This document shows, piece after piece, positions 4,637 through 47,477 of a DNA stretch of 57,502 nt. Numbering within the stretch: the first letter of the stretch is position 1; every line of letters begins with the position of its first letter. The notes under the pieces were generated by a model. That model saw nothing but the letters and a program-made list of their open reading frames with translations, had not been told where the DNA came from and ran no database searches. The DNA lies in NCBI GenBank assembly GCA_043801745.1, contig JAZDLR010000025.1, positions 1 to 57,502 of the forward strand. The letters run 5' to 3'. This stretch comes from Candidatus Komeilibacteria bacterium. Its GTDB lineage: Bacteria; Patescibacteriota; Patescibacteriia; UBA1558; 2-01-FULL-52-15. A program made the translations under genes and the position numbers.

Positions 4637-5800
4637 ATGGCAAAACGCACTGCTCAAGAAGTTAAACCTCCGGTAGAAAATATCGCTAAAATTAAAGTTG
4701 TTGGTGTTGGGGGTTCTGGCGGATCGGCTTTGAACCGGATGATGAGTTCTAAAGTCCGCGGCATTGAGTTTATTGCCATTAATACTGATGCTCAGGCGTT
4801 GAATCAATCCCAGGCTCATCGCAAAGTTCAGATTGGCGTTAGCACTACAAAAGGTTTAGGTGCCGGCATGGATCCGGATGTTGGTCAGCGTTCAGCCGAG
4901 GAAAATGAATCAGACATTGCCCGCGCCATTGAAGGAGCTGACATGGTGTTTTTGACCTGTGGTTTGGGTGGCGGCACCGGCACGGGCTCTATTCCCTTTA
5001 TTGCGCAGTTAGCCCGTGAAGCTGGTGCTTTGACAGTAGCGGTCGTGACTAAGCCCTTTTCCTTTGAAGGCGCTAAGCGCCGGGAAATTGCCGAATCAGG
5101 TTATGAGCAATTGTTGGACCGGGTTGATACTATTATCACGATTCCCAATGACCGTTTACTACAGATTATTGATAAGCGCACGCCTCTGCTGGAGGCCTTC
5201 TCTATTGTTGATGAAGTTTTGAAACAGGGAGTCTTGGGTATTTCCGAAATCATCACTATACCCGGATTAATCAATGTTGATTTTGCTGATGTTAAAGCCA
5301 TTATGGGTAATGCCGGTACGGCTTTAATGGGTATTGGTCAGGCTAGCGGTGAGAACCGGGCGATTGAAGCGGCCCGGGCCGCGATTGATAGTCCTTTATT
5401 AGAGTTGTCGATTGAGGGCGCTAAGGGAGTGCTCTTTACTGTCGCCGGTGGACCAGATTTATCTATGCATGAGGTGCAAGAAGCAGCTGAAGTTATCACC
5501 GCCAGCGCTGATCCTGGTGCTAAGATAATCTTTGGAACTATAATCGATGATTCTTTGGGTGATCAGATAAAGATAACAGTTATTGCTACTGGCTTTAAGA
5601 ACCTTCGCGACCGCCGTACTAATGATGACGATGAAGAAGGTCCGTCATATCGGCAGGCCAAGACAGTATTTTCCCCAACTATGGAAGAAAAGAAAATTTT
5701 CACCAAGCCTAAGGTTGAGATAGAAAAGGAAGAGTCAGTTGACGAAGAGTATAAAGAGTTAGATATCCCGCGTTTTATCCGCAATAAAATGAAGAAATAG
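4637..5800 (+). CDS. ftsZ: Cell division protein FtsZ
   Basis: GGGTGTG tubulin signature; C-terminal LDIPRFIR. Confidence 0.99.
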   Translation: MAKRTAQEVKPPVENIAKIKVVGVGGSGGSALNRMMSSKVRGIEFIAINTDAQALNQSQAHRKVQIGVSTTKGLGAGMDPDVGQRSAEENESDIARAIEGADMVFLTCGLGGGTGTGSIPFIAQLAREAGALTVAVVTKPFSFEGAKRREIAESGYEQLLDRVDTIITIPNDRLLQIIDKRTPLLEAFSIVDEVLKQGVLGISEIITIPGLINVDFADVKAIMGNAGTALMGIGQASGENRAIEAARAAIDSPLLELSIEGAKGVLFTVAGGPDLSMHEVQEAAEVITASADPGAKIIFGTIIDDSLGDQIKITVIATGFKNLRDRRTNDDDEEGPSYRQAKTVFSPTMEEKKIFTKPKVEIEKEESVDEEYKELDIPRFIRNKMKK

Positions 5801-5879: not shown

Positions 5880-6416
5880 ATGAATTGTCCGGTTTGTAAT
5901 CATGCAGATACTAAAGTTGTAGATTCCCGTATTACCACTGATACCACGGGAATCAGGCGTCGCCGTGAATGCGTCAAGTGCGCATTCCGTTTTTCAACTT
6001 TGGAGGAAGTCGAGCTTCTGGATATGATGATTGTTAAACGCGATGGTCGGCGGCAGCCGTACTCACGGGATAAGTTGGCCCAAGGTTTGCGTAAGAGTTT
6101 GGAAAAGCGTTCTTATACGGAAGATCATTTTAATAATTTACTGCACCGGATAGAGCGCGATATTCAGAAAACCCGCAAAAGTGAATTGACCAGCAAGGAA
6201 GTAGGCGAGATTGTGATGAAACGGCTTAAGCGCTTTGATGAAATTGCTTATATCCGTTTTGCCTCGGTTTACCGGTCGTTTACTGACGCCGCCACCTTTA
6301 AGCGCGAGTTGGAAGGTATGCTGCCTGCCCGACTCGGCGCGTCTTCGCGGGCGGGCGGGCCTGCCCGCCAGCAGCTGCGCCGTCAGGCGGTGGCCGGCAG
6401 GCGAAAGAAACGATGA
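5880..6416 (+). CDS. nrdR: Transcriptional repressor NrdR with in-frame palindromic insertions near the C-terminus
   Basis: CPVC...RRRRECVKC Zn ribbon, ATP-cone, AYIRFASVY. Confidence 0.97.
   Translation: MNCPVCNHADTKVVDSRITTDTTGIRRRRECVKCAFRFSTLEEVELLDMMIVKRDGRRQPYSRDKLAQGLRKSLEKRSYTEDHFNNLLHRIERDIQKTRKSELTSKEVGEIVMKRLKRFDEIAYIRFASVYRSFTDAATFKRELEGMLPARLGASSRAGGPARQQLRRQAVAGRRKKR
6324..6401. repeat. Two tandem palindromic modules (36 nt + 42 nt) inside nrdR
   Basis: CCTGCCCG...CGGGCGGG and CCTGCC...GGCAGG; both lengths are multiples of 3. Confidence 0.8.
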
Positions 6417-6762: not shown

Positions 6763-7998
6763 ATGAAACCTGCGGTCAAGATAATTATTTGTTCCCTAAT
6801 AATACCGGTTGCCGCCGGTTTTATCGGCGCTTACCTCTTTATTAATTACGGTCAAAACTGGATCCGCGTCACTGGGATTAATAGTGGTCCGGGTAAAGAT
6901 AATTTAGTCACTGTTTTACAGGATGATAAAAATAAAGTTCTGAAGGTAACGGAAGAATCCAGCACCATTGATATTGCTCAGGCCGTGGCGCCGAGCGTGG
7001 TATCGGTGACTATTAAGAAGGATGTCAGTCAACAACCAGTGGATCCCTTTTTTGATTTTTCTCCTTTTGATCAATTTTTTGGCACTCCGACTCCGCAACC
7101 GACTCCTAAAAGCACCACGCCGAATATTCAGAAAGTGGGTGGCGGTTCGGGTTTTATTATTACGGCTGATGGCTATATCCTAACTAATCGTCATGTGATT
7201 AGTGATACCGAGGCTCAATACACCGTAACTTTAAATGACGGCAAGGAATATCCGGCTAAGGTTATTGGTACCGATTTATTTAATGATGTTGGTGTGTTGA
7301 AAATTGACGCCAAAAATTTGCCGGTTTTGAAACTGGGCAACTCGGATGATCTTAAAGTCGGTCAAACTGTCATTGCTATGGGTAATGCTTTAGCGGAATT
7401 TCCCAACAGTGTGACTAAAGGTGTTATTTCTGGCATGGGGCGCAGTGTAGTGGCTGGCGGTGGCGGCACTTCAGAAAATCTGGAAGACGTGATTCAAACT
7501 GACGCGGCTATTAATCCGGGAAATTCCGGCGGGCCGCTGTTAAACTTGGCCGGTGAAGTGGTGGGTGTTAATACGGCTGTGTCTAATCAGGGTCAGTTAA
7601 TCGGTTTTGCGATTCCTATTAATTCGGTGAAGAAAATTGTTCAGGGTATTGTGACAAAAGGTGAGATTATCCGTCCTTATCTGGGTGTGCGTTATGTTCT
7701 GATCACTGACGCTTTGGTGCAGCAGAATAATTTACCGCTCCAGCAAGGCGCTCTAGTTACCCGAGGTAAGAACGCCGCCGATATTGCCGTAATTCCCGGA
7801 TCACCGGCGGACAAGGCGGGTATTGTTGAAAATGATATTATTGAGTCTGTTAACGGAAAAGTTATTACCGAGCAAGATAATTTGGCTAAATTGATTAGTG
7901 GTTATAATCCAGGTGATCAGATTAAGCTAAAAGTTTATTCTAAAGGTAAAGAGAAAGAAGTGACAGTAACTTTAGAACAATATAAACCCAGTAACTAG
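6763..7998 (+). CDS. htrA: HtrA/DegP-family serine protease with PDZ domain
   Basis: LTNRHV, DAAINPGNSGGPL, C-terminal PDZ. Confidence 0.95.
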   Translation: MKPAVKIIICSLIIPVAAGFIGAYLFINYGQNWIRVTGINSGPGKDNLVTVLQDDKNKVLKVTEESSTIDIAQAVAPSVVSVTIKKDVSQQPVDPFFDFSPFDQFFGTPTPQPTPKSTTPNIQKVGGGSGFIITADGYILTNRHVISDTEAQYTVTLNDGKEYPAKVIGTDLFNDVGVLKIDAKNLPVLKLGNSDDLKVGQTVIAMGNALAEFPNSVTKGVISGMGRSVVAGGGGTSENLEDVIQTDAAINPGNSGGPLLNLAGEVVGVNTAVSNQGQLIGFAIPINSVKKIVQGIVTKGEIIRPYLGVRYVLITDALVQQNNLPLQQGALVTRGKNAADIAVIPGSPADKAGIVENDIIESVNGKVITEQDNLAKLISGYNPGDQIKLKVYSKGKEKEVTVTLEQYKPSN

Positions 7999-9908: not shown

Positions 9909-9971
9909 ATTATTAAAAGCTTTAATTATTGAATAAAAATAGCGATTATTGGCCATTTTTGTTATTTAGGA

Positions 9972-10025
9972 TTGACATAGTTTAATATATATGTTATTTT
10001 TTTACATTCGTCGTTCTCTTACAAC
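9972..10025 (+). promoter_or_regulatory. sigma70-like promoter followed by a boxA-like motif
   Basis: TTGACA(9972)-17-TATTTT with upstream TG; CGTTCTCTTACAAC at 10012. Confidence 0.5.
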
Positions 10026-10157
10026 CTAGGACTTACGCGGTTTAAATACCGCTCAATATAGATAGTGGCAAGCTAATAACCGGTCAAATAGCCGGAGTTT
10101 AGCACGCCAGAAAAAAGTAGCAGGCCTACTCGTGGGCGCGCTACGGAGGAAAATAAC

Positions 10158-10730
10158 ATGGGAAAGTCAGTTGTTGAGATCCGCCAGCTCGACAAGTTTG
10201 ACCGAGCTTTTGAAGCAGTTGGGGGTACACCCGCGGATTTTGACAAGATGTCTCAAGCAGATCTGTTGCGGCAGCTTCTTGGAGTTGTCCGCGGTAAGGC
10301 GGTCGTCGCCAAGATCGTCATTGATCTAGCAAAAGACCCCTTCTGTCCTAATAGCGGTACGGTAGAACCCGGTGATCACCAGAGGGGCGATGCCAACTTC
10401 GAGTGGGATCCCGATATGGTCGCCCTGTACCTGGATGAAGTTCAGATGGGTGGTCGTTTCATTAATGGTTACAAACTCCGTGAAAAGCTGATTGGAAAGC
10501 ACGTCTTTAACGCGAATGCGTTAGACTACCTGCTTGCCAATTCATACCTTATCCCTCGGGAGTGGAAGGGAAGGCGTATCTTCTTCTGGGGTACGATTTA
10601 TCGTAACTCCCGTGGCGTCCAGCATGTTCGTTATCTCTATTGGGGTAGCGATGGGCAGTGGGATTCGGGTTACCAATCGCTCGACATAGATGTGGACCCT
10701 TTCAGTCCCGCGCTTGTTCTGGTGGCTTAG
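10158..10730 (+). CDS. Hypothetical protein with Trp-rich C-terminus (possibly lectin-like)
   Basis: ACGGAGG SD; LDYLL..IP.EWKG..IFFWGTIYR motif. Confidence 0.8.
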   Translation: MGKSVVEIRQLDKFDRAFEAVGGTPADFDKMSQADLLRQLLGVVRGKAVVAKIVIDLAKDPFCPNSGTVEPGDHQRGDANFEWDPDMVALYLDEVQMGGRFINGYKLREKLIGKHVFNANALDYLLANSYLIPREWKGRRIFFWGTIYRNSRGVQHVRYLYWGSDGQWDSGYQSLDIDVDPFSPALVLVA

Positions 10731-10763
10731 TCCAGCGTAAACTTTTCCGGACATCGTGTCCGC

Positions 10764-10795
10764 AGAGCCCTGTGCAGCAATGTGCGGGGCTCTTT
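10764..10795 (+). terminator. Intrinsic terminator
   Basis: AGAGCCC...GGGCTCT followed by TT. Confidence 0.6.
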
Positions 10796-10800
10796 AAATT

Positions 10801-10957
10801 ACCTCACCCCCGCCCGCAACGCCTGAGCGTAGCAATGGCGGGCGGGCCAACCATCTCCTTGAAAAGGAGAGGGAGGAAGTGCTCCTAAATATCGTCCCTC
10901 TCCTTAATAAGGAGAGGACAGCCTGCCCGCCGAAGCTTTAGCGAAGGTGGGTGAGGT
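10801..10957. repeat. REP/MITE-like composite repeat, copy 1
   Basis: Ends ACCTCACCC/GGGTGAGGT, internal CTCTCCTT...AAGGAGAG hairpins, nested palindromes. Confidence 0.85.
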
Positions 10958-11006
10958 TTTTAGTTATTTGATATGGCGTGGTATAATATCAGTGAAATTT
11001 TTCCCC

Positions 11007-12449
11007 ATGTTTGACCATTTAGATCCACGTCCGGTATTGCAGAAGAATTGGCACCATCACATTTCTTTAAGTTTTTTGTTGGCCTCGTGTTTGATGTTAG
11101 TGTTGGCTTTTACGGCGCCGATAATTTCATTTACCCAGACCGAGCGGCCAGCCGGAGATCCGGTGGTCCGCGTTTGGGTTGATACTGACGCTGCTAAACA
11201 GAGCGAGGTTGTTGGTCCGGTAGAGAATTTAGAAGTAGCTCACCTGGTAATGCAATCGGATGATCCGGTGACTTTATACCGTTTGCGCTTGATTATAGAC
11301 GGTTTATATTTACCTACTGATTTAACCCTGCCGCGTCTTTATGTTGACGAAGTCCAGGTTGGCCATGACCGGAAAGTTAACAATGACGGAGTAATAACTT
11401 TTGAAACAAAGACAGCCGTTTTAACAGCCGGAACTCATGATATTGTTGTGCGCGCTAATTGGCTGGTTAATGGTCCGGGACATCTGTTAACGGCCCGTCT
11501 GGAGAGTGCCAAAGATATTATTTTTACCGCGCCGGGCAGCAATCCTACTGTTCAGGCCGTATTTCCTCTAAGTACCGGGGGTATAAGTTTTGTCTCAGCC
11601 GGTTCCTGGGTAATGGTGCAGCCAACTGATTTAGCGCCTCAAGCAGCCAGTGATGATCATGATTTGCAGCGTGTAGCTTTTTCTCTTCCTCTGGCTGCCA
11701 GAGCTGAAGCAATTACAGTTTCTAAAATTGTGCTGGGTTTTGAGACTAAGAAATTTATTCCTGTCAGCGTTTCTATTCTCAAGGACAGTACAGCAGTTAA
11801 AGTCTGGAATAATATTGTTATAGCTAATGATCAATATGTCTGGGATGTTCCCGGGTCTGATTTGGTAATTTCGCCGGATAAGATCAGCCAATTGCAGGTA
11901 ATCGTCCGGGGTAAAGCGGAGAGCGATCAGGCGCAAGTGAGTTTGTCGACCCGGCAAGTAGAGGGTACGGGGTTTAGTTCTGGCAGTAAGATTACTTGGC
12001 AGCCAGTAGATCCTTTAGTGCAAGACCGTCAGCTGGTTCATGATCAGCCAGCTTGGACTCTGGAATCGCCCGATTCTCTAACTGGCTATCGTTTACGCTT
12101 ACAAACCTTATCTCACGCCGGTATTGTTTTGAGTTCCTTAGTTTTACAGCTTACGGCCGAGGTCGCAACCGGATCATTACCGTGGAAAGTTTATCTGCAA
12201 GGAAAAGAAGTACCGGCAGAGTTTACCTGGTCAAAGCCAGACTTGATCCGGGTCAATTTTCAGCCCAAGATCACCGTCCAGAACAAAGATACTTTAGAAT
12301 TTAGAGCGACGGCTGATTCCACCGGAAAGAATCAGGCGGCAGTACGTCTATTACCAACGGAGTTTATTTGGGAAACTAAGTCTACTGACTGGTTTGCTGT
12401 TGCTGGTTTATTGTTACCGACGGCTCCGGCCGGTATGATTAATTTTTAG
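11007..12449 (+). CDS. Hypothetical secreted or membrane-anchored beta-rich protein
   Basis: N-terminal hydrophobic helix; TATAAT at 10982 favours ATG 11007. Confidence 0.7.
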   Translation: MFDHLDPRPVLQKNWHHHISLSFLLASCLMLVLAFTAPIISFTQTERPAGDPVVRVWVDTDAAKQSEVVGPVENLEVAHLVMQSDDPVTLYRLRLIIDGLYLPTDLTLPRLYVDEVQVGHDRKVNNDGVITFETKTAVLTAGTHDIVVRANWLVNGPGHLLTARLESAKDIIFTAPGSNPTVQAVFPLSTGGISFVSAGSWVMVQPTDLAPQAASDDHDLQRVAFSLPLAARAEAITVSKIVLGFETKKFIPVSVSILKDSTAVKVWNNIVIANDQYVWDVPGSDLVISPDKISQLQVIVRGKAESDQAQVSLSTRQVEGTGFSSGSKITWQPVDPLVQDRQLVHDQPAWTLESPDSLTGYRLRLQTLSHAGIVLSSLVLQLTAEVATGSLPWKVYLQGKEVPAEFTWSKPDLIRVNFQPKITVQNKDTLEFRATADSTGKNQAAVRLLPTEFIWETKSTDWFAVAGLLLPTAPAGMINF

Positions 12450-12485
12450 TTACATGCCAAGAGCGCGATTTGTCCCTACAATGGG

Positions 12486-13901
12486 ATGAAAAGCGATTCG
12501 ATGGCTAACAAAGCGATTGTTAGATTGGCAGTGTTGGGATTATTAGCTGGAATCTTGGTTTCCAGTTTTTTTGTTTTGTCCCCGCTATATTTATCGGGAA
12601 TTATTTTTGTGTTAGCGGGTATTTGTTGCTATTGGCGGCGGTTCATTTGGTTATTAATAGTTATTTTTTTTCTAATTGGTAATTGGCGAACACAAATGGT
12701 CATCCGTTATCAGCCGGCTGTCCCGGCGACAATTGATGCTCTGGCTGTTGTGCGTTACCGTGATTATAGTGATGATCAACAGAAGCTGCGGCTTCAGATT
12801 CGAGGTATACCTGGTGCTGTGCAGATCGCCGTTAATAGATTCCCGGTTTATCATTATGGTGACGTACTGCGCGTCCGTTGTCAGCCGCAGCTGACCAGTC
12901 AGGAAACAGAACAATCATGGCAGCGCCGTTTACAACTACAAGGTATTAGTGCCCGCTGTTTTTCTGCTGTTGTTTCTTATGATCATTCTTCAATCGATTG
13001 GCGTTCGCCATTTTTTACTTTTAAAGATTACATTATAAATGTTTACATTAAGACTCTGCCTGGCCCGGTGGCTGGTTTGATGCAAGCTATGATCGTTAAT
13101 GAGCGGGGAGAGGTGGCACGGGACACTACCAGTAATTTTAGCCGCAGCGGTTTAAGTCATATTGTAGCTATTTCCGGTATGAATATGACGTTGCTGATTA
13201 TTGCCGGTCAAACGTTTTTGGTCCGGCTGGGTTTACGGCGCCGGCAAACAGCAATTTTTTTGATTGTTGTCTTGACGGTGTACGTTATGATCATTGGGCT
13301 GCCAGCTTCAGCTGTACGGGCAGCATTGATGTCAAGCGTGGTTTTGTTGGGTTATTTGGTCCGGCGGCCGATTGATATAACTCATACGTTGTTACTGGTC
13401 GCCGGTATTTTGGCACTAGTGAATCCTCTGGCAGTTGTTTATGATATTGGTTGGCAATTATCCTTTTTGGCTTTAGCGGGATTAATTTGGTGGACGCCGT
13501 GGTGGACCAGGACGCTTCACTGGCTACCCGAGCGTTGGGGTTTGCAGGAATTGATCAGCGCCACGTTGGCGGCACAGATGTTAACTTGGCCGTTAATACT
13601 TTATTATTTTCAAATTTGGGCTCTGTGTTTTTTGCCAGCTAATATTTTAACTGTACCTTTGGTCGGACCCATTATGATCAGCGGCTTACTACTGCCGTTA
13701 GTCTGGTGGATTCCTATAGTTGGGGCGGTAATTAGTTTAGTTGTAACTTTGCTGATACGTTGGTTATTACTGGTTGTGACTACAGTGGGATCATCTTCCT
13801 GGGCAGTATTACCAATTCCTTTTTCATCAGTTGCTTTGTTACTGTCGGCCGGATTAATGATTATATTAACAAAATTAGTTAATGAAAAAAGCAGCCATTA
13901 G
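12486..13901 (+). CDS. comEC: ComEC/Rec2 competence membrane domain protein
   Basis: GLSHIVAISGMN, SAVRA, GWQLSF motifs. Confidence 0.92.
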   Translation: MKSDSMANKAIVRLAVLGLLAGILVSSFFVLSPLYLSGIIFVLAGICCYWRRFIWLLIVIFFLIGNWRTQMVIRYQPAVPATIDALAVVRYRDYSDDQQKLRLQIRGIPGAVQIAVNRFPVYHYGDVLRVRCQPQLTSQETEQSWQRRLQLQGISARCFSAVVSYDHSSIDWRSPFFTFKDYIINVYIKTLPGPVAGLMQAMIVNERGEVARDTTSNFSRSGLSHIVAISGMNMTLLIIAGQTFLVRLGLRRRQTAIFLIVVLTVYVMIIGLPASAVRAALMSSVVLLGYLVRRPIDITHTLLLVAGILALVNPLAVVYDIGWQLSFLALAGLIWWTPWWTRTLHWLPERWGLQELISATLAAQMLTWPLILYYFQIWALCFLPANILTVPLVGPIMISGLLLPLVWWIPIVGAVISLVVTLLIRWLLLVVTTVGSSSWAVLPIPFSSVALLLSAGLMIILTKLVNEKSSH

Positions 13902-14799
13902 TTTATTAGTGATCACAATGATCACCCTCTTAGGGCTGACCGTTGGATCTCAATTGATTTCTTCGGATTCAACTTTAGAGATCTCAGTTTTAGACGTTGG
14001 TCAGGGCGATAGCATCGTGGTGCGTACTCCGGATAATGTCAGCTTGGTCATTGACGCCAGCGCCGGTCATCAAGAAGTTGATGCTTTGGCCAAAATTCTA
14101 CCCTGGAATCAGCGGCATTTGGATTATCTGTTAATCACTCATCCGGATCTTGATCATTATGGTGGCGCGCGTTGGCTTTTGGAACGCTATACCATTGGTC
14201 AGGTATTATATAACGGTAACGAAGCTAACGTGTCAGCCGGTTTTAAACAATTTTTGGCTGATATCAGGCAGCGTGGTATTCCCTTACGGCTGGTGCAAGC
14301 AGGCGAGGTTATTCAGTGGCCTTCGGGTGTCCACTGGAAATTTTTATGGCCGCCGGCTGATTATCAAGCCGACAATACTAATGCCAGCTGCGTGGTCAGT
14401 AAAATATCCTGGGGTAGCGAAGATCTGCTACTGCCTGGCGATCTGCCTAGTGAGCAAGAAGCAATTCTGTTGACCCAACAGGATGTCAGTGCCGAAATTG
14501 TCAAAGCCGGTCATCACGGCAGCAAATTTTCTTCATCTTCGGCTTGGCTGCAAGCAGTTAGCCCAGAGTGGTGCCTGATTTCCGCTGGTCGCGACAATAG
14601 CTATGGCCACCCTAATTACGCCGCTCTGCAGCGGCTGCAGCATACAGGTTGCCGTATATTATCAACAATTGATAATGGGACGCTATCCTTCCGTTTTAGC
14701 TCGACCTCTATTGATTATTTGACTGCTCCCGGGTGGGATTTTTTCGGCTTGCCAATGGCGCCTCTTTTGGCTATACTGAACCCGTTACCTAATAAATGA
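13882..14799 (+). CDS. ComEC-type metallo-beta-lactamase domain protein (separate ORF)
   Basis: DVGQGD, THPDLDHYGG, GHHGS, NSYGHP. Confidence 0.9.
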   Translation: MKKAAISLLVITMITLLGLTVGSQLISSDSTLEISVLDVGQGDSIVVRTPDNVSLVIDASAGHQEVDALAKILPWNQRHLDYLLITHPDLDHYGGARWLLERYTIGQVLYNGNEANVSAGFKQFLADIRQRGIPLRLVQAGEVIQWPSGVHWKFLWPPADYQADNTNASCVVSKISWGSEDLLLPGDLPSEQEAILLTQQDVSAEIVKAGHHGSKFSSSSAWLQAVSPEWCLISAGRDNSYGHPNYAALQRLQHTGCRILSTIDNGTLSFRFSSTSIDYLTAPGWDFFGLPMAPLLAILNPLPNK

Positions 14800-14804
14800 A
14801 AACT

Positions 14805-15182
14805 ATGGCCGAAGGCAAAAAAATATTGCTCGTTGAAGACGAGGAGATGCTGGCTAACATGTATCAAGTGAAATTCCAGAATGATGGATTTCAATTGATC
14901 AAGGCTGGTAATGGGGAAGAGGGTTTGGTTTTAGCGGAGAAGGAAAAGCCCGACATGATTTTACTAGATGTTATCATGCCGAAGATGGACGGCTTTACGG
15001 TTCTTAAACGTCTGAAAGACAATCCTAGTACAAAAAATATTCCGGTTTTGCTATTGACCAATTTAGGTCAAGATGAGGACGTGAAAAAGGGCAATGAACT
15101 GGGAGCCGTTGGTTATTTAGTTAAAGCTAATATCACTCCTTCAGAAGTAGTGGCCAAAGTTAAGGAAGTGATGAAATTATAA
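14805..15182 (+). CDS. Single-domain response regulator (receiver)
   Basis: LLVEDE, LLDVIMPKMDG, LTN, LVK. Confidence 0.92.
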   Translation: MAEGKKILLVEDEEMLANMYQVKFQNDGFQLIKAGNGEEGLVLAEKEKPDMILLDVIMPKMDGFTVLKRLKDNPSTKNIPVLLLTNLGQDEDVKKGNELGAVGYLVKANITPSEVVAKVKEVMKL

Positions 15183-15183
15183 T

Positions 15184-15780
15184 ATGGCCCAGGAATTAAT
15201 TCAGAGAAGTTTAGTTTTGATTAAACCTGACGCCGTTAAGCGCGGTTTGATTGGTGAGATACTTTCGCGGTTAGAAAAATCCGGATTGAAAATCATTGGC
15301 CTGAAGATGGTGTGGGTTGATCAGGAGTTGGTGGGCCAGCATTATCCCGATGCCCGGACTGAATTATTAGAAGGCATGGGTAAGAAGACTTTAGAGACCT
15401 ACGAGAAGTACGGTAAAGATGCCAATGAAGAATTGGGTACTATGGATCCGGTAGAGATCGGTAGAATGATAAATCAATGGAATAGAGATTTTTTGTCCAG
15501 CGGTCCTGTAGTAGCTATCGTCTTTGAAGGTTTGCACGCGATTGATAATATCCGGATGATTGCCGGCAATACTTTGCCGGTGATGGCGCAGCCGGGAACG
15601 GTCCGCGGAGATTTTTCTCTTGATTCACCGGCCTTAGCTAATAGCAACAAACGCGCGGTGCGAAATATGATGCACGCTTCCGGCAATGAAGAAGAAGCCA
15701 AGTTCGAAATTCAGTTGTGGTTTCACGAAAACGAATTGCAGAATTATAAGCGAGCAGATGAAGAGGTAATGTTTGGTTAG
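15184..15780 (+). CDS. ndk: Nucleoside diphosphate kinase
   Basis: IKPDAVKRGL, PGTVRGDF, NMMHAS. Confidence 0.95.
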   Translation: MAQELIQRSLVLIKPDAVKRGLIGEILSRLEKSGLKIIGLKMVWVDQELVGQHYPDARTELLEGMGKKTLETYEKYGKDANEELGTMDPVEIGRMINQWNRDFLSSGPVVAIVFEGLHAIDNIRMIAGNTLPVMAQPGTVRGDFSLDSPALANSNKRAVRNMMHASGNEEEAKFEIQLWFHENELQNYKRADEEVMFG

Positions 15781-15908
15781 GAATTAGGCGTTAGCTTGTG
15801 GGTTGTAGTTTAAAGAAGAATCAGCAGAGCTGGCTCTTTTTTTGTCTGGTTGCTACCGAGTAGCGTGAGTGCTATGATAGAAGTAGTTCTCTACAACACT
15901 GGGTACAT

Positions 15909-16013
15909 ATGCTCTACATCCCTTTCTTTGGGAGTCTTATATTGTGGCTGGCCTTGGCCAGTTCACTGCGGACACCCACTTACCATCAAGGGGTAATGTG
16001 CTCTGTGGCCTAG
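15909..16013 (+). CDS. Putative 34-aa hydrophobic peptide (or an ncRNA locus)
   Basis: MLYIPFFGSLILWLALASS..., between a promoter (15850-15878) and a hairpin with T-tract. Confidence 0.3.
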   Translation: MLYIPFFGSLILWLALASSLRTPTYHQGVMCSVA

Positions 16014-16093
16014 AGAACGCAGGGAAAAAATCTCCGCGGTGCGCCATGATTAGCCAGAAGCGACCGGCATGGGGATTTTTTGTTTTGATAAAA

Positions 16094-16226
16094 ACCTCAC
16101 CCCGCCAGAGGCGGGCAGGCTGTCCTCTCCTTCTTAAGGAGAGGAACGTTGTTTATATGGCTCGTCGCTCTACTTAACCTCCGTGCGCTCTCCCTCTCCT
16201 TTTGAAGGAGAGGGTTGGGGTGAGGT
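16094..16226. repeat. REP/MITE-like composite repeat, copy 2
   Basis: ACCTCACCCC...GGGGTGAGGT with CCTCTCCTT...AAGGAGAGG hairpins. Confidence 0.85.
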
Positions 16227-16239
16227 AATGCCAAAAAGC

Positions 16240-16301
16240 TTGACCCCGTTAGAAGCTTCGCTTCTAACGGGGTTGACTTTTTGATTTAGGTGTGCTATAC
16301 T
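16240..16301 (+). promoter_or_regulatory. Promoter TTGACT-17-TATACT preceded by a CCCCGTTAGAAG...CTTCTAACGGGG palindrome
   Basis: Consensus spacing with extended TG; TTGAC on both sides of the palindrome. Confidence 0.7.
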
Positions 16302-16356
16302 GTATTAGTAAGGTAATTTTGTTTTTTGTTCACGTTATAATGCAGACACTTACATT

Positions 16357-18069
16357 ATGACCGGGAACAAATTTTTATTTAGACAGACACTACTTGCGGT
16401 TGCTGTCTTTTTGTTTATCCTAATTTTAGCCACTACTTTGTTCCGGGTCTTTGCCTGGGCCGAGACTGCAGATACTCCGCTGGCTATCAGCGACATTAAA
16501 GCCGAGTTAATTTCTAATGGCTCAATTGTTATCAGTTGGAAGACTAATAAGCCGGCTGATGCCACCGTGACTTACAGCGACGATTTAAGTTTCAGCCAGC
16601 AGAAAACTTTAAGCACGCTTTATTTAGAACGGGCGATTATTTTGGATAATATTAAACCCGACACTTTGTATCATTACCGTGTAATTAGCCGAACGCCCCA
16701 AGGAGAGGAAGCTCGCAGCTTACATTTAATGGTTCAGTCGCACCTTCCGGTTGATATTACTGTTAGTCAGATTATGATTGATCCCGCAGTCAAATTATAT
16801 AGCGGTCAGCCGCCGTTATTGGATAAGGATACTCTCGTAGCCACACTCCGTAATAACGGTAATCTTGATTGGTCCAATGATTTTTTTGTCAGTTTTTTAA
16901 TTGCTACGGATGATAATGATGTCGCTAATGAAGGAAGATTGCCGTACAGTTGCTTTGTCGAAAAAAATATCTCTGCCGGTATTAAAGCGCAAGAAGAAAA
17001 AAATATTTCGCTGGAAGCGAATGATTTAGCCGGGTGCGATCCTTTGTTGCCGGGAAAATATATTTTAACTGTTGCGGCCGATTATGATGAGCGAACGGAT
17101 GATAGTAATCGTGAAAATAATACTGCGACTATTTCTGTGACTAATATTTCATCCACTGGCGCACCGCAGTTTACCGATCTGACAGCAACTGTCGTCACCG
17201 CTAGTTCGGCTACTATGACTGTTTCCCTGGAACCCCAGCAACCTGGAGCCAAGGTAACGGTAGAGTATGCGCCGCAAAATTATTGGGACAATGATACAAC
17301 TCAGGGACAATATCAGTATCAACAAGATGCGGTCATTGATCGGGGTGAATTTTCGACTCAAATTAAAGGCTTAGATGAAGAGACAACTTATCATCTACGG
17401 GTTCGTCTGGTTGGCACCAATGTTGTTTCTGACGATGTCACCTTTATGACCAAAAAAAATCTTCAAGCCGATAGCGACCGTCTATTGGCGCTGAAGCGTT
17501 TAGATCCAACTTGTCGCGTGGTGGACAGTCAGCCGTTAGCGACCAGTTTCTGGCAAGATTTGGGTTTGACTCTGCCGGAGCCGCAACCAATTTTACGCTA
17601 CCGCATTCAGTGGAGTAATGGTGGCTGGTCGCCTTGGTATATACCCGGCAACGGCGATATTGATTGGCAGCAGAATACTGCCGGCCAGGATCGGCGCATC
17701 TGGAGCTATTTTCAGGGCCGGGCTTTTCAATATGAAACCTGCGGCAGTGGTACTTTACCCTCCACTGACAAAGCCAGTAAGGCGGTAGTGCAGGAAAAAT
17801 ACGGCAGCACTATTGATACAAGTTTAGAGGCCAAAAATGAGGTCGTCAAAAGCAAAATTATCGCCTTTGATAGGGCTTTAAAATATTATAAACGCGGTGT
17901 GTCGACCGATAATTGGCAAACTTTGCGCGATGCTTATATTTATGGCGGATACTCTTTGGCGGAAATTACTGATTCTATAGTTTACGGCCCCGGACCGGTT
18001 CATCCGACGATTCCGGCGCAGATTTGGCGCCAGCAGTATCAGGTTCAGCTTAGCTCCAATAATTATTAA
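16357..18069 (+). CDS. Secreted protein with fibronectin type III and CARDB-like domains
   Basis: Signal peptide; ISWKT...PDTLYHYRV and ETTYHLRV Fn3 motifs; DDSNRENN. Confidence 0.75.
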   Translation: MTGNKFLFRQTLLAVAVFLFILILATTLFRVFAWAETADTPLAISDIKAELISNGSIVISWKTNKPADATVTYSDDLSFSQQKTLSTLYLERAIILDNIKPDTLYHYRVISRTPQGEEARSLHLMVQSHLPVDITVSQIMIDPAVKLYSGQPPLLDKDTLVATLRNNGNLDWSNDFFVSFLIATDDNDVANEGRLPYSCFVEKNISAGIKAQEEKNISLEANDLAGCDPLLPGKYILTVAADYDERTDDSNRENNTATISVTNISSTGAPQFTDLTATVVTASSATMTVSLEPQQPGAKVTVEYAPQNYWDNDTTQGQYQYQQDAVIDRGEFSTQIKGLDEETTYHLRVRLVGTNVVSDDVTFMTKKNLQADSDRLLALKRLDPTCRVVDSQPLATSFWQDLGLTLPEPQPILRYRIQWSNGGWSPWYIPGNGDIDWQQNTAGQDRRIWSYFQGRAFQYETCGSGTLPSTDKASKAVVQEKYGSTIDTSLEAKNEVVKSKIIAFDRALKYYKRGVSTDNWQTLRDAYIYGGYSLAEITDSIVYGPGPVHPTIPAQIWRQQYQVQLSSNNY

Positions 18070-18185
18070 ATAATAATCAATAATGTCATGACATAAAAAT
18101 CCCAGATAATAAGAAAATCAAATTGGTGTGGAGTGGCCACGTTACCCAGTGTCGGGCAGCGTGGTTTTTGTGTTACAATAATGGC

Positions 18186-18536
18186 ATGATAATTCTCGGA
18201 CGCTTGATGATTAACGCCATAATAATTGCTGGTCTTTTTAGCTTCGTGCCAGGCGTGGGCACAGCCAGTTTCATCAGTTTAGCTGTAGTGGCTGTAACTT
18301 TATCGCTGATTAATTCCCTGATGCCCTGGTTGTTGCCTCTGGCGGGTATTTCCTTTAATCTGGGAAGTTTTGTCTTAGCTTTGATTGTCGCCGATGGTCT
18401 TCTGGTTTGGTTAGGAGTGACTATTCTGGGTATTATATTTGTTATCAGCTATTCAGCTGTAGTTCTAGTGGTGGTGGTTATGGCAATTTTGAGCTGGTTT
18501 GTACAAAGTTTGGGTTTCAATTATTATCATAAGTAG
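18186..18536 (+). CDS. 4-TM membrane protein, YvlD/phage-holin-family-like
   Basis: Four hydrophobic segments, about 116 aa. Confidence 0.55.
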   Translation: MIILGRLMINAIIIAGLFSFVPGVGTASFISLAVVAVTLSLINSLMPWLLPLAGISFNLGSFVLALIVADGLLVWLGVTILGIIFVISYSAVVLVVVVMAILSWFVQSLGFNYYHK

Positions 18537-18570
18537 ATAAATTTCACTGCGTCCTTTTCAGGAGGGGTTT

Positions 18571-18720
18571 ATGGCGGAATCTCAAGACTCGGCTGTTGAT
18601 GTCGAGCAAGCAAGGATCGAGCTGGAATTATCTCTGCCCGATCTCCGGCTTCAGCTGGAAGCTCTGGAGGCAGCTCAGCGAGTCACTACCGCTACGCTGC
18701 AACTGACATTTGACGTGTAG
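18571..18720 (+). CDS. 49-aa acidic small protein (not in the ORF track)
   Basis: GGAGG SD; MAESQDSAVDVEQARIELELSLPDLRLQLEALEAAQRVTTATLQLTFDV. Confidence 0.6.
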   Translation: MAESQDSAVDVEQARIELELSLPDLRLQLEALEAAQRVTTATLQLTFDV

Positions 18721-18782
18721 CTCAGCGTCAGAGTTCGAAAAAAAAGAACGCCACGGTGACGTGGCGTTCTTCATTATATAAG

Positions 18783-18959
18783 TTAAGCCTTTTGTTTGGC
18801 CTTGGTTTTCCAACAGCGTGTGCACATGGAAATGCGTTTACCGCCGAGCATCTTGGGCTGAATATTTACTTTCTGCCGGCGTTTGGTAGCGATATTGGAT
18901 TTGCTGCGCAGGTTAGACATTTGCGGACCGCGTCCACAGACTTCACAGAATTGAGCCAT
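18783..18959 (-). CDS. rpmB: 50S ribosomal protein bL28 (Zn-binding type)
   Basis: MAQFCEVCGRGP...TKRRQKVN...CTRC. Confidence 0.93.
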   Translation of the reverse strand: MAQFCEVCGRGPQMSNLRSKSNIATKRRQKVNIQPKMLGGKRISMCTRCWKTKAKQKA

Positions 18960-19084
18960 AATAGTTTGGAGTTCGTTGTTATATAAGCTATAATTGATTA
19001 GTAGTTGTTGGATAATACCTTTTTTTATTTTTTTTGTCAATCCCGTTAGAAATATGCAATAGATATTTTTAAGGGGGCAATCAT

Positions 19085-19714
19085 ATGTTACTGAATTTAT
19101 TATTTCAGCAGCCCGGTGTAGCCATATTATTGCTGTTAGCAATTATTGTGGTGATTTCGGTTCATGAGTATTCTCATGCTTTGGCGGGTTATCTATTGGG
19201 AGATAAAACGGCCGAACATGAGGGCCGGCTAACTTTGAATCCTTTGTCTCATCTGGATCTTATGGGTTCATTAATGTTGATCATCGTGGGTTTTGGTTGG
19301 GGACGGCCGGTGCCATTCAATCCTTATAATTTGCGTTGGCCTAAATGGGGCCCGGCAGCAGTCTCTTTAGCCGGTCCGGTGTCTAATTTTATTATGGCGT
19401 TTGTCTTTGCGGGTATATTGGCTTTGATACGTCCGACTTATGGCGTGGATAATTATCTCACCTTATTTTTGATTTTTTTGGTAATGTACAGTGTGGGCCT
19501 GGGTTTATTTAATCTTATTCCCATACCACCACTTGATGGCTCAAGGGTATTATTAACCTTGCTACCGCACCGTTATGATTGGCTGGCGATTTGGCTCCAG
19601 CGTAACGGTTTTTGGCTGCTCATTGGTTTATTAATAGTTCTACAGTTTTCTGACCAAGGTTTCTTTCTTCATGTCGTTAACGCCATTTTAGGTCTTTTTG
19701 GTCTGCAGCTATAG
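19085..19714 (+). CDS. Site-2 protease (peptidase M50)
   Basis: HEYSH and FNLIPIPPLDG. Confidence 0.93.
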   Translation: MLLNLLFQQPGVAILLLLAIIVVISVHEYSHALAGYLLGDKTAEHEGRLTLNPLSHLDLMGSLMLIIVGFGWGRPVPFNPYNLRWPKWGPAAVSLAGPVSNFIMAFVFAGILALIRPTYGVDNYLTLFLIFLVMYSVGLGLFNLIPIPPLDGSRVLLTLLPHRYDWLAIWLQRNGFWLLIGLLIVLQFSDQGFFLHVVNAILGLFGLQL

Positions 19715-19728
19715 CTATGAAGTATGTC

Positions 19729-19757
19729 TTGACGCCCAAATGGCAATGTGCTAACCT
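19729..19757 (+). promoter_or_regulatory. str operon promoter
   Basis: TTGACG-17-TAACCT with extended TG. Confidence 0.6.
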
Positions 19758-19896
19758 AAGCTCTGCGATTTTGTTAAACAGTTAATGCTCATATCCGTGC
19801 GCCTTATGGTGAGTGAGGCCAGCTCAGCTGGTCGAATCGAACCAGGCCGGGTAGCGGTGAACCACCAATGAGGGTTCACATTTGTTTTAAAAAATT

Positions 19897-20322
19897 ATGC
19901 CAACATCAACTCAATTATTACGCGGCGCCCGTAAGCCGTTCAAGAAGAAGTCTAAGACTCCGGCTTTGATGACTACTCTCAATAGCTTGCGCCGCACTAA
20001 ACGTGAATTGCCTGCCGGTAGTCCTTTTAAACGTGGTGTCTGCGTCAAAGTTACAACCACAACTCCCAAGAAACCTAATTCGGCCTTGCGTAAGATCGCC
20101 AGAGTCCGTCTGTCTAATGGTCAGGAAGTCACGGCCTATATTCCGGGCATTGGCCATAATCTACAGGAGCACTCAGTCGTCATGATCCGTGGCGGCAGGG
20201 TAAAAGATTTGCCTGGTGTGCGTTATCATATTGTCCGCGGTGTTTACGATACGCAGGGTGTTCAGGGTAGAAAACAAGGTCGCAGTTTATACGGAGCGAA
20301 GAAAGAGAAAGCAAAGAGTTAA
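19897..20322 (+). CDS. rpsL: 30S ribosomal protein uS12
   Basis: [20 protein letters not shown]. Confidence 0.99.
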
Positions 20323-20361
20323 TAGAATAATTGATTAATTGAATAATAGCGACGATTTTAT

Positions 20362-20826
20362 ATGCGTGGAAAACGAGCACCCAAAAGAATTATCAAAGCC
20401 GACAGTAAGTTTGGCCGTGTTGATATTGCTAAAATGATTAACCGCATTATGGAACGCGGCAAGAAATCTGTAGCGCAACGTATTGTTTACGATGCTTTTA
20501 ATATTATTTCGGCTAAGACCAAGCTGGATCCGCTGGAAGTTTATGATACTGCTTTGCGCAACGTTGGTCCTAGTCTGGAACTCAAAGGACGGCGTATTGG
20601 TGGTGCTAACTACCAGGTGCCGATAGTGGTTATTGGTGACCGGAAAGTAATTTTAGCTCACAAGTGGATTATTAATGCCGCCCGCAGTAAGAAGGGTAAG
20701 CCGATGGCAGTGAAACTGGCGGAAGAAATTATGGCCGCGGCTAATAATGAGGGTGATGCCATTAAGAAACGTGAAGATGTGCATAAGATGGCCGAAGCTA
20801 ACAAGGCCTTTGCTCATTTCGCGTAA
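20362..20826 (+). CDS. rpsG: 30S ribosomal protein uS7
   Basis: GGANYQVP, MAEANKAFAH. Confidence 0.99.
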   Translation: MRGKRAPKRIIKADSKFGRVDIAKMINRIMERGKKSVAQRIVYDAFNIISAKTKLDPLEVYDTALRNVGPSLELKGRRIGGANYQVPIVVIGDRKVILAHKWIINAARSKKGKPMAVKLAEEIMAAANNEGDAIKKREDVHKMAEANKAFAHFA

Positions 20827-20932
20827 ATTTATTCTGTAAGATTATGATTGGAGTTATTAAAATCGTTAATCTAAGTAATAATCTAGAGCTACGGCTTGCA
20901 AGCAAGGCCTTTGCTCATTTCGCGTAAATTTA
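20802..20932. repeat. 30-bp exact direct repeat of the rpsG 3' end
   Basis: CAAGGCCTTTGCTCATTTCGCGTAAATTTA at 20802-20831 and 20903-20932. Confidence 0.95.
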
Positions 20933-20965
20933 CCATAATATTTGTCATTAGGTTAGAAATTAAGT

Positions 20966-23068
20966 ATGGCCGGAGAAAAATTTAATTTAGATCAAGTCCG
21001 CAACATTGGCATTATTGCCCATATCGACGCCGGAAAAACAACTGTGACCGAGCGCGTTCTTTTTTATACCGGCAAAAAGCATAAGATGGGTGAGGTGCAT
21101 GAAGGTGAAGCGGAAATGGATTGGATGGAGCAGGAGAAAGAGCGCGGTATTACGATTACAGCCGCGGCCACTACTTGTTTCTGGCCAATACCTGAATGGT
21201 TGGATGGAGGCATGTCCCGTATTAATATTATTGATACTCCGGGGCATGTGGATTTCACGGTTGAGGTAGAGCGGTCTTTGCGCGTTCTTGACGGCGGCGT
21301 GGTTATTTTTGACGGTGTGGCCGGTGTGGAGCCGCAGTCAGAAACTGTCTGGCGTCAGGCCGATAAATATCACGTGCCGCGTCTGGCTTTTATTAATAAG
21401 ATGGATCGCATGGGTGCGGATTTTTACAAGGATTTAGCCAGTATTCACGAACGGCTGACAAAAAAGGCTTATCCCATTCAGTTACCGATTGGCGCAGCTG
21501 AAACTTTTCAGGGTTTGATTGATTTATTCAGCCGTAAGGCGGTTTATTATTTAGATGAGGACGGTAAGAAATTTGAAGAGCGGGACGTGCCGGAAGATAT
21601 GAAAGTTAAAGTGGAGGAATACCGGGCCAAGTTGGTTGAGTCCCTGGTTGAATATGATGACGCGGCCATGCATAAATATCTGGAAGGTCAGGAAATTACC
21701 GTGGAGGAATTAAAGAAATTAATGCGGCGAGCTGTTATTACTGATCAGTTTGTTCCGGTTTTGTGCGGTTCGGCGCTGAAAAATAAAGGCGTGCAATATA
21801 TGTTAGACGCGGTTACGGCTTATTTACCTTCGCCGCTAGACGTGCCGCCTTTGATCGCTCATGATATTCATGATTTATCTAAGGAAATCGAGCGCAAGCC
21901 CGATGCTAACGAACCTTTTACGGCCCTGGCTTTTAAAATTGCCACCGATCCGTTTGTCGGCCGTATTACTTTTATCCGGGTTTATTCCGGTACTTTACAG
22001 TCCGGTTCTTACGTTTTGAACGCTTCCAATGGCGAGAAAGAGCGCATTGGCCGCTTACTGCGTATGCACGCTAATTCCCGCGAAGAAATTAAAGAAATTT
22101 CTGCTGGTGATATTGCTGCGGTGGTTGGTTTGAAGGCAACAGTGACTGGTAACACATTGACTGATGAAGATAACCCGGCAGTATTAGAGAGCATTGTTTT
22201 CCCCGAGCCAGTTATTGACGTGGCGATTGAGCCGAAGACCAAGCAGGATCAGGAAAAGATGGGCATTGCTATTGGCAAGCTGGCCGAAGAAGATCCGACT
22301 TTCCGCGTGCGTAGCGATGAGGAAACTGGCCAGACCATTATTTCCGGTATGGGTGAATTGCATTTAGAAATCATTGTCGACCGCATGAAGCGCGAGTTTA
22401 ACGTGGAAGCTAATGTGGGTCAGCCGCGGGTTGCCTACAAAGAAACTATTAGCGGTGAAGCTGAAGGCGAGGGTAAATATATTAAACAGTCCGGAGGCCG
22501 CGGTCAATATGGTCATTGCTGGATTAAAGTCAAAGCGCGCGAACGCGGTAAGGGTTATGAATTTGTTGATGAAGTTAAGGGTGGCTCTATTCCCCGCGAA
22601 TATATTACCCCGATTAACCGCGGTATTCAGGAAACTCTGGCGCGCGGAATTTTAGCCGGCTATCCGATTATTGACGTGCAGGCCACGGTTTTCGACGGAT
22701 CGTATCATGAGGTTGACTCATCTGAAGCGGCTTTCAAAATGGCCGGATCTTTTGGTTTCAAAGAGGCCTTTATGAAAGCTAAACCTATTATTCTTGAGCC
22801 AATTATGAAGATCGAAGTGCTGACCCCGGAAAATTACATGGGTGATGTGATCGGCGACATTAATTCCAAGCGCGGACAGGTTAATGAAATGACCGAAAGG
22901 ATGGGTATTAAAGTTATCAAAGCCCAAGTGCCGCTGTCGGAAATGTTTGGCTATGCCACGACTTTACGCAGTATGACGCAGGGTCGGGCTTCTTATTCTA
23001 TGGAGTTCGGTCATTATCAGGAAGTGCCAAAGAATGTTGCCGAGCAGATTAAAGAGGGGAAGAAGTAG
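20966..23068 (+). CDS. fusA: Elongation factor G
   Basis: [21 protein letters not shown]; 700 aa. Confidence 0.99.
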
Positions 23069-23187
23069 GTTTGGGGCTTGGAGCTAGGGACACGGGATTC
23101 GCGGGATTTTAAAAACCGCCGCAGGTTGCGGGGTAAGCAAGGTGCAGTGCCTTGTTTTTTTAGAATACCTCACAAATTATTTATATT

Positions 23188-23333
23188 ACCTCACCCACCT
23201 TCGCTAAAGCTTCGGCGGGCAGGCCTGTCCTCTCCTTCAAAAGGAGAGGAACGATATTTATATAGTTAGTCGCTCCTTTTCCATTTACCGCGCTACCTCC
23301 CTCTCCTTTTCAAGGAGAGGGTTGGGGTGAGGT
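23188..23333. repeat. REP/MITE-like composite repeat, copy 3
   Basis: Same termini; 23194-23223 is the exact reverse complement of 10922-10951. Confidence 0.85.
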
Positions 23334-23406
23334 ATTCAAAACAAAAAAATAAAACGCCGCGGCTACTATGTTTCAGTAGTTTCGCGGCGTCGGCAGTGGC
23401 TGAGTT

Positions 23407-47196: not shown

Positions 47197-47273
47197 GGGT
47201 CCATAGCTCAGCCTGGTAGAGCAGTTGCCTTTTAAGCAAACGGTCGGAGGTTCGAATCCTCCTGGACCCACCA
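47197..47273 (+). tRNA. tRNA-Lys(TTT)
   Basis: GGGTCCA/TGGACCC acceptor stem, TTCGAAT T-loop, encoded CCA; promoter TTGACA(47151)-17-TATTCT. Confidence 0.97.
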
Positions 47274-47436
47274 TTCTTCGCGAAGCGAAGAATGTCATCC
47301 GTAGCCTTGGCGAAGGATGACAAGAAACAAAAATCAGTGCCAAATCATTGGGCTACGAATGGCACAGCCAATAATATAGTTAAACATCTAAGCAGGTCGG
47401 GCGGGACAGTCCTTTTTATTTGTCCGCCTCTGGCAG

Positions 47437-47477
47437 AAGCAAACGGTCGTCCCGCCGCGGCGGGACTGGACCCACCA
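47437..47477 (+). pseudogene. Degenerate duplicate of the tRNA-Lys 3' half with the T-arm replaced by a palindrome
   Basis: AAGCAAACGGTCG-[TCCCGCCGCGGCGGGA]-CTGGACCCACCA. Confidence 0.8.

Follow-up and report, generated by a model that had tools for sequence, protein, structure and literature searches.

Inverted BoxC/PIT/TM triplex-motif pairs with hairpin-filled second loops and an association with DUF559 genes in a Komeilibacteria genome

In a 57,502-nt stretch of DNA from a Candidatus Komeilibacteria bacterium (assembly GCA_043801745.1, contig JAZDLR010000025.1, analysed over its whole length and hereafter called the window), three copies of a hairpin-rich repeat hold different palindromes at what looks like one and the same site. 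The locus thus raises the question of what the outer element is, why a single site within it holds interchangeable hairpins, and which enzyme might act on it. A sequence-only reading had taken the repeat for a new kind of element resembling repetitive extragenic palindromic (REP) sequences or miniature inverted-repeat transposable elements (MITEs). This identification was not supported: each copy is an inverted pair of units of a known repeat, the BoxC/PIT/TM intrastrand triplex motif, an assignment that is well supported. The whole explanation proposed here, namely that BoxC/PIT/TM pairs carry second-tier hairpins in their loop 2 and represent the ends or satellites of a DUF559-linked cassette, appears probable to us, albeit far from certain.

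BoxC/PIT/TM repeats are intrastrand triplex motifs that occur in inverted pairs of two loop-2 types (Holder, 2015, PMC4666352, where earlier work by Bergler and by Hoyne and Maher is cited). In the sections of that paper drawn on here, Escherichia coli K-12 is reported to carry 23 motif copies, always intergenic and without strand bias, and five inverted pairs, each of which combines a type-A loop 2 with a type-B one. According to the same sections, the triplex forms in vitro as single-stranded DNA, and no promoter, terminator or mobility function is known (PMC4666352).

The source genome (G000; 1,086,886 bases in 26 contigs, 98.8% complete, with the window as contig C11) was searched by blastn with the three window copies, which returned 24 places; these were read with their flanks and dissected into units by hand. 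The half-unit census combined a pattern search with hand reading, and units missed by the pattern were added. Together, these approaches gave 19 full copies, two solo half units and a few fragments. All copies are intergenic, seven being co-oriented, seven anti-oriented and five located between convergent genes, calls that rest on a crude map of open reading frames (ORFs). Each unit consists of a pyrimidine arm (CCCTCTCCTT) and its complement, a purine arm (AAGGAGAGGG), which are separated by a loop 1 of 3-4 nt; after a short loop 2 comes a third strand (GGGTGAGGTW). As a purine-motif intrastrand DNA triplex would require, this third strand mirrors the purine arm: each G faces a G, and each A faces a T or an A. 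The copy ends described in the earlier reading are the G-rich third strands of the units, and the empty form of the element runs from a short end (ACCTCACC) through a 9-10-bp hairpin, a spacer and a second hairpin to the complementary end (GGTGAGGT). A CA-type and a TTGG-type loop-2 unit are joined in 19 of 19 pairs, with the third strands pointing outward in all of them; the spacer is long (about 45 nt) in 13 pairs and short (about 20 nt) in six. As for features of a MITE, long inverted ends are present, no target duplication is discernible at the 38 pair ends, and DUF559, the only gene found between such inverted ends, is not among the known transposases.

The structural rule extends well beyond these pairs. 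Our own rule-based unit finder, set to a loop 2 of at most 6 nt, returned 45 rule-obeying units in the source genome, which fall into three different stem families, and in every family the third strand matches the stem. At a wide setting (loop 2 up to 50 nt), 80 units were found compared with one in a mononucleotide-shuffled genome, a count that is inflated since the purine arm of a neighbouring unit can pass as a third strand. In two units, C23:28650 and C1:68256 (contig and position), all three strands are changed at the same triplet, which constitutes triple covariation. Furthermore, a hairpin-only scan of one genome per prokaryotic species, with the third strand outside the pattern, gave at least 119 loci in cyanobacteria, Patescibacteria, Bacteroidota, Proteobacteria and others, and the triplet rule applies at the first eight post-hairpin positions in 101 of the 122 matches listed. 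About seven units of the second and about eight of the third stem family are present in the source genome; a second-family unit lies within the window at 55142-55175 on the minus strand (…CCCCTCCT / AGGAGGGG / GGGGTGGT).

The element shares with published BoxC/PIT/TM repeats the order of arm, loop, arm, loop and mirror third strand, the intergenic location in multiple copies, the lack of strand bias, the occurrence in many phyla including cyanobacteria, and inverted pairs that always join two loop-2 types. It does not match the TM_ECO consensus letter for letter: this consensus has 9-nt stems of G and C only, whereas the main family here has 10-nt stems that end in A/T (…CCTT / AAGG… / …GGTW), and the solo unit C3:16407-16440 alone has E. 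coli-like ends. Because the family is defined by its structural rule, the element is nevertheless filed under BoxC/PIT/TM, of which it is an undescribed variant form. Two further differences from the published description, as far as the sections drawn on here go, are the uniformly outward third strands and the length of loop 2, which in 12 of 40 units is 21-45 nt. Loop 2 of TM_ECO is 3 nt, and the loop limits set in published searches were 1-6 nt (ITxF) and, in an earlier search, 0-10 nt (PMC4666352); units with a long loop 2 would thus have been missed. These sections of Holder (2015) mention neither loop-2 fills nor a link to DUF559.

Loop 2, which separates the purine arm from the third strand, holds all the interchangeable segments, and the fill site is fixed: fills sit exactly between the loop-2 letters and the third strand, and the other-stem-family unit C20:44388 is filled at the same place. 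Loop 1 is sometimes used as well; its length, for which the motif definition has 3-6 nt, is 3-4 nt except in three units with loop-1 inserts (C1:68324, C4:71748 and one in contig C13 of the congener G001). Filled and empty sites coexist genome-wide, as the earlier reading required, with 12 of 40 half units filled and 28 short. Among the 19 CA-type units, 11 have a 2-nt loop 2 and eight have one of 21, 31-32 or 45 nt; among the 21 TTGG-type units, 17 are short and four are longer by 35-40 nt. Neither half is filled in eight pairs, and a single pair is filled on both sides. Polarity is uniform in all 13 loop-2 fills (the 12 and that of C20:44388): read on the G-rich strand, they start with (G)CCYGCCCGCC and end in a run of G that merges with the third strand.

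The fills also exist separately from the units. Their pattern of GC stem and tail occurs at 24 places in the source genome, 11 of them outside any unit, and fill types 1, 2, 3 and 5 have stand-alone homologues there. Type 5 is found in loop 2 of two different unit families as well as alone, with 33-34 of 35 letters shared (hand comparison). In a phylum sample of 401 genomes, which was used for both fill-core and unit searches, 72 genomes contain the 17-nt core of the type 1 fill (none with a reversed-pattern control). At the 30 loci that were read, this core is mostly free-standing, in some cases directly after the 3' end of a tRNA, and a CA(A/G)GC tail is conserved. The stem flanking the core covaries across these loci, aligned without gaps (85% of cells paired, 40 double-sided, 0 of 500 shuffles as high); the shuffles ignore relatedness, and slid controls were likewise far lower. 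Types 1 and 3 have the outer stem and an internal loop in common and differ in the inner stem-loop, which covaries between copies and is a third tier of nesting. In the same phylum sample, units with exact family-1 arms (gap of 2-32) occur in 21 genomes. Among the matches listed outside the source genome, loop 2 measures at least 12 nt in 22 of 80 units, in seven of 20 genomes, and these loops are nearly all self-complementary (hand count), with sequences that differ from genome to genome. Among the 122 matches listed in the hairpin-only scan, 12 cyanobacterial ones have a mini-hairpin (10-11 or 24-25 nt) at the corresponding place.

In addition to the fills, the units have a conspicuous neighbour. 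The earlier reading had pointed to a linked RAYT (REP-associated tyrosine transposase), GIY-YIG or DUF559 gene, and it is DUF559 that is found beside the units. DUF559 is a Vsr-like PD-(D/E)XK nuclease family, and a DUF559 protein of the source genome matches one solved chain, 3hrl_A, an 'endonuclease-like protein' (E 2e-21). The source genome has two DUF559 genes above the Pfam cutoff, and both adjoin units. In a survey of 86 genomes of the order, DUF559 is present in 34, and 23 of the 29 loci read outside the source genome have a rule-obeying unit within 200 bp, eight of them on both sides. Comparing the density of units up to 200 bp from the gene with that 300-1,500 bp away at the same loci, we counted 40 units in 11,217 bp (3.57 per kb) versus one in 62,611 bp (0.02 per kb), an enrichment of about 180-fold. 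The E. coli K-12 gene ycjD, which is annotated as DUF559, ends 168 bp from a BoxC repeat, and this repeat was found again with our own finder. No literature linking DUF559 with triplexes was found, and no title among the DUF559 literature matches listed has a repeat theme.

The other two candidates were set aside. RAYT was rejected as partner of the outer element, as units within 200 bp were seen at none of 11 RAYT-like loci of relatives. The source genome itself has two RAYT-like genes (Pfam Y1_Tnp, 26.3 bits; NCBIfam REP_Tyr_transpos, 56.8 bits, below the cutoff of 80); one gene is cut by a contig end, and a GC hairpin stands roughly 30 nt upstream of one. Beside 20 RAYT-like loci, GC hairpins reach 1.0 per kb near the gene versus 0.53 per kb far from it, which is no clear enrichment, and outside the source genome none of these hairpins belongs to the relevant kind. 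GIY-YIG had ten matches in the source genome, none of them beside a family-1 pair when positions were compared by hand. Separately, we note that in C4:5143-7501 two near-identical small ORFs (5143-5376 and 7181-7501) bracket a RAYT-like gene and its neighbour, as if a segment of about 2 kb had been inserted or duplicated, and that a hairpin of the AAAAACAGGGT…ACCCTGTTTTT type stands directly before the start codon at the RAYT-like loci L041, L042, L043 and L051 of relatives.

Within the window, the three copies of the sequence-only reading were confirmed by the sequence and a three-way alignment, copy 1 being inverted relative to copies 2 and 3 (Table 1). The alignment likewise bears out its interchangeable palindromes at one site that follows the eight initial letters (30 nt in copies 1 and 3 versus 19 nt in copy 2), and its extra 38-nt insert, which is unique to copy 1 among the three. 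In a repeat search of the window, copies 1 and 3 matched over 37 nt with 100% complementarity; copies 2 and 3 share 86-89% identity across 47-51 nt in their hairpin regions, and copy 1 has a mismatch in one of its hairpins. Because copies 1 and 3 otherwise differ in spacer class and in their hairpin loops, this perfectly identical module points to a recent transfer. A fill related to the 38-nt hairpin of copy 1 is found in the corresponding loop 2 elsewhere, at C1:67669-67707. The type 2 fill of copy 2 recurs at C1:68373-68391, with stand-alone relatives at C3:51870 and C20:70830, and the layout of the unfilled unit of copy 2 recurs at 23299-23332.

Table 1. Units, loop-2 fills and DUF559 genes in the window and elsewhere in the source genome; positions without a contig prefix refer to the window, and TM denotes the triplex motif.
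Feature	Position	Strand	Description	Remark
Copy 1	10801-10957	-	Inverted TM pair, short spacer	Only copy in the genome filled in loop 2 of both halves
Loop 2, copy 1, TTGG-type half	10809-10846	-	38-nt GC hairpin, 9-bp stems	Alignment and stem pattern
Loop 2, copy 1, CA-type half	10919-10949	+	31 nt compared with the usual 2; type 1 hairpin	Identical to the fill of copy 3
Copy 2	16094-16227	+	TM pair, long spacer; CA-type loop 2 filled, TTGG-type empty	Unit dissection
Loop 2, copy 2, CA-type half	16102-16122	-	21 nt; minimal 6-bp GC hairpin with 3-nt loop, type 2	
Unfilled unit	16192-16226	+	Pyrimidine arm, 3-nt loop, purine arm, 3-nt loop 2, mirror third strand	
Copy 3	23188-23334	+	TM pair, long spacer; CA-type loop 2 filled	
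Loop 2, copy 3, CA-type half	23196-23227	-	32 nt; type 1 hairpin with 17-nt core	
DUF559 gene	C1:67851-68267		Bracketed by full pairs 67661-67839 and 68243-68398	Second pair supplies the last codons
DUF559 gene	C20:82606-82971		Other-stem-family unit about 20 nt upstream	

Each of the three window copies is located in the gap that separates a terminator from the promoter or terminator following it. The suggestion that each abuts the terminator of an orphan cassette applies to copy 1, which follows a genome-specific cassette, but neither to copy 3, where the gene is fusA of an rpsL-rpsG-fusA operon, nor to copy 2, which follows ndk and a conserved 6S-like region; copy 3 is flanked by the terminators of the convergent fusA and a 191-aa ORF. 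A T run (at least five T) lies within 22 nt at 10 of the 38 pair ends versus 4.7% of random genome positions, a background that would be higher for intergenic DNA, and this fits the terminator-abutting part of the suggestion. The cassette that ends at copy 1 spans about 1 kb (9909-10800), with a promoter-like site at 9972-10000, a strong ribosome-binding site and a terminator; its 190-aa ORF has no Pfam match. In the two congeners, G001 and G002, which are collinear with the window, the same neighbours have no such cassette between them. The region after ndk (15885-16020) has a weak match to 6S RNA (19.2 bits, E 0.12, below the gathering threshold), is conserved in both congeners and has a terminator-like T run at its end.

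The congeners also show that the copies are not fixed features of their loci. At the locus of copy 2, G001 and G002 have about 39 nt and no unit, compared with 188 nt in the source genome; for copy 3, no element lies within about 600 nt after fusA in G001, and the corresponding stretch of G002 is partly masked. Exact right ends number 15 in the source genome, one in G001 and none in 39 other relatives, and both congeners have a few full or partial copies elsewhere. Since congener loci lack the element and copies occur at other places, the pairs probably come and go between species, and they may be mobile, as judged from such comparisons; the congener junctions are not clean enough for an insertion footprint. 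In metagenomes, a scan anchored on the end of fusA returned 0 matches, and one with the CA-type hairpin gave 39 matches at 38 loci, mostly unrelated hairpins such as tRNA arms, with no close relative of the source genome; about 11 of these matches have a third strand and two have a long loop 2.

Taken as a mechanism, the units would be the recognition ends or the satellites of a selfish DUF559 cassette, with DUF559 as the putative partner enzyme, and the gene-less pairs would be non-autonomous relatives of this cassette that act at the level of DNA. As the three strands co-vary from one stem family to the next, what is recognised may be the folded three-strand DNA or, at a minimum, the sequence relation among its strands. 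Loop 2, presumably unpaired in the folded unit, would tolerate or attract GC-rich mini-hairpin repeats. These fills might enter by a polar, duplication-free route, such as single-strand insertion or short-tract gene conversion between units, and might be lost again by slippage across the hairpin. As to the earlier proposal that hairpin elements insert into one another and are mobilised in trans, the nesting itself (GC hairpin within pair, inner stem-loop within GC hairpin) and the separate families stood, whereas insertion is a step that we infer; the proposal as a mechanism is plausible.

Several points weigh against this explanation. Target duplication was found neither at the fills nor at the 38 pair ends of the source genome, and the contrasts between filled and empty sites are all between paralogous copies, with no orthologous filled-versus-empty locus found. 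As the edges of the fills are short G runs, deletion or slippage across the hairpin between them could empty a filled site, so that the direction of change is not settled. With only about six fill types, the uniform polarity could in part be inherited from a small number of filled ancestors. For the inner hairpins, no linked enzyme was found. The link between DUF559 and the units is an association: six of the 29 loci of relatives have no unit within 200 bp, although three of these six are at a contig end, and 17 of the 19 pairs in the source genome are not next to a DUF559 gene. To our knowledge, no activity of DUF559 has been reported. Finally, dimethyl sulfate (DMS) footprinting gave no evidence of a stable triplex in vivo, according to the sections of Holder (2015) drawn on here (PMC4666352).

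The loop-2 hairpins could instead form an optional arm that is built into the unit, for instance for recognition by a partner protein, and that diversifies in place and is swapped by recombination. Their constant self-complementarity, position and polarity agree with such an arm, as do the genome-specific fill sequences across the phylum and the overlap of the 3' arm of the fill with the first Gs of the third strand, which indicates structural integration. However, homologues of four fill types stand alone, far away from units, type 5 is shared by two unit families, and 28 of the 40 units have no fill. The type-1 core, moreover, is a hairpin found across the phylum, mostly by itself and often immediately after tRNA 3' ends. 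We regard a built-in arm as unlikely. A different view would see the copies as REPIN-like doublets that are mobilised by a RAYT. Two inverted hairpin units are the architecture expected for these, HUH enzymes would produce polar, duplication-free fills, and the source genome has two RAYT-like genes, one with a GC hairpin upstream. Neither the 11 RAYT-like loci of relatives, none with a unit nearby, nor the 20 loci without clear GC-hairpin enrichment, with the relevant kind absent outside the source genome, agree with this view, and the units lack the GTAG that we associate with REPs. For the outer element it is close to refuted, and its chance of being right is minimal.

The copies might also act as RNA, be it as stabilisers in 3' untranslated regions, as terminators or as a small RNA family with variable stems. 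Folds predicted with ViennaRNA, a model that does not cover triplexes, are strong (z of -5.0 to -6.4), many copies abut terminators, as seen in the T runs at pair ends, and the stems of the nested hairpins covary. An RNA-level role is nevertheless highly improbable because the window copies lie outside terminator-bounded transcripts and match no Rfam family, because the 19 copies of the genome show no orientation bias relative to genes, and because a hairpin of RNA would have no use for the mirror third strand; at the gathering threshold, Rfam reports two tRNAs alone in the window, and over the copies there are only chance sub-threshold miRNA-like matches. In line with this, the introduction of Holder (2015) states that the purine-motif triplex does not form in RNA, and its discussion reports PIT motifs without promoter or terminator activity in E. 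coli (PMC4666352).

Apart from BoxC/PIT/TM itself, the pairs resemble other small repeats in part. Bertels and Rainey reportedly described, in 2011, REP/REPIN elements together with RAYT transposases, and the likeness lies in the inverted hairpin doublets, the tens of copies, the intergenic location and a candidate single-copy partner gene flanked by units. Here, by contrast, the candidate partner is a DUF559 nuclease instead of a Y1 HUH transposase, and the units carry a third strand. REPs have a conserved 5' GTAG next to an imperfect palindrome; this tetranucleotide is found in none of the units of the source genome, and the tail of the inner hairpins, CA(A/G)GC on one strand, differs from it. 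Bacterial interspersed mosaic elements (BIMEs) of E. coli combine several types of REP, joined by linkers that are either short or long. The pairs likewise combine two unit types in alternating orientation with short (six of 19) or long (13 of 19) linkers but belong to a different unit family, and we know of no report of BIMEs with nested hairpins in a fixed loop. Elhai and co-workers are said to have described, in 2008, small dispersed Nostoc repeats nested in one another, and very small hairpin repeats inside other repeats are what is seen here too. BIMEs receive a one-line mention in the introduction of Holder (2015, PMC4666352).

A second family of small palindromes in the window provides a further comparison. 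At 16239-16276, a 28-nt palindrome with stems CCCCGTTAGA / TCTAACGGGG lies within the -35 box of the promoter of an fn3-domain gene, with TTGA duplicated, and the box is uninterrupted in G001 and G002, which represents a clear orthologous empty site. This family has 10 copies in the source genome, seven of them with a 4-nt duplication. It resembles the loop-2 fills in its conserved GC stems, variable interiors and size of about 28 nt; unlike these palindromes, the fills duplicate nothing and are polar, which implies a different process.

GC hairpins also occur elsewhere in the window. Two abutting ones at 6324-6401 belong to the same kind as the loop-2 fills; they code for the final 30 or so residues of nrdR (5880-6416), so that repeat DNA is read through as a protein tail. 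A 43-nt GC hairpin follows about 90 nt after the tRNA at 56848-56919 (56848-57059 in all), and at 47197-47552 the tRNA at 47197-47270 is followed by two repeated segments that start with a sequence resembling a tRNA 3' end. Unrelated to these, six copies of a 36-nt GAT/GAC-rich coding repeat lie within a large ORF at 1266-2410; the encoded repeat is Asp-rich and, by eye, resembles thrombospondin type 3.

BoxC/PIT/TM repeats have been known for about three decades and from hundreds of genomes with no function, partner protein or spreading mechanism, according to the sections of Holder (2015) drawn on here (PMC4666352). The roughly 180-fold association of units with DUF559 and the hot spot in loop 2 make the question of their function testable. 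Loop 2 accepts foreign hairpins while the three strands keep co-varying, which argues that selection acts on the folded three-strand form. It also follows that the family is undercounted by searches that allow only short loops. For the annotation of candidate phyla, the present assignment explains a class of 'MITE-like' intergenic repeats. A bolder version of our proposal, which we put forward tentatively and consider rather doubtful, is that BoxC repeats are the DNA ends of a widespread selfish DUF559 element and that loop 2 is a structure-specific landing pad on which independent mini-hairpins arrive repeatedly, in one polarity and without target duplication. If true, the former part would provide a nuclease-based counterpart of the REP/RAYT system, and the latter would mean that ultra-small genomes harbour hairpin DNA parasites in a hierarchy of three tiers.

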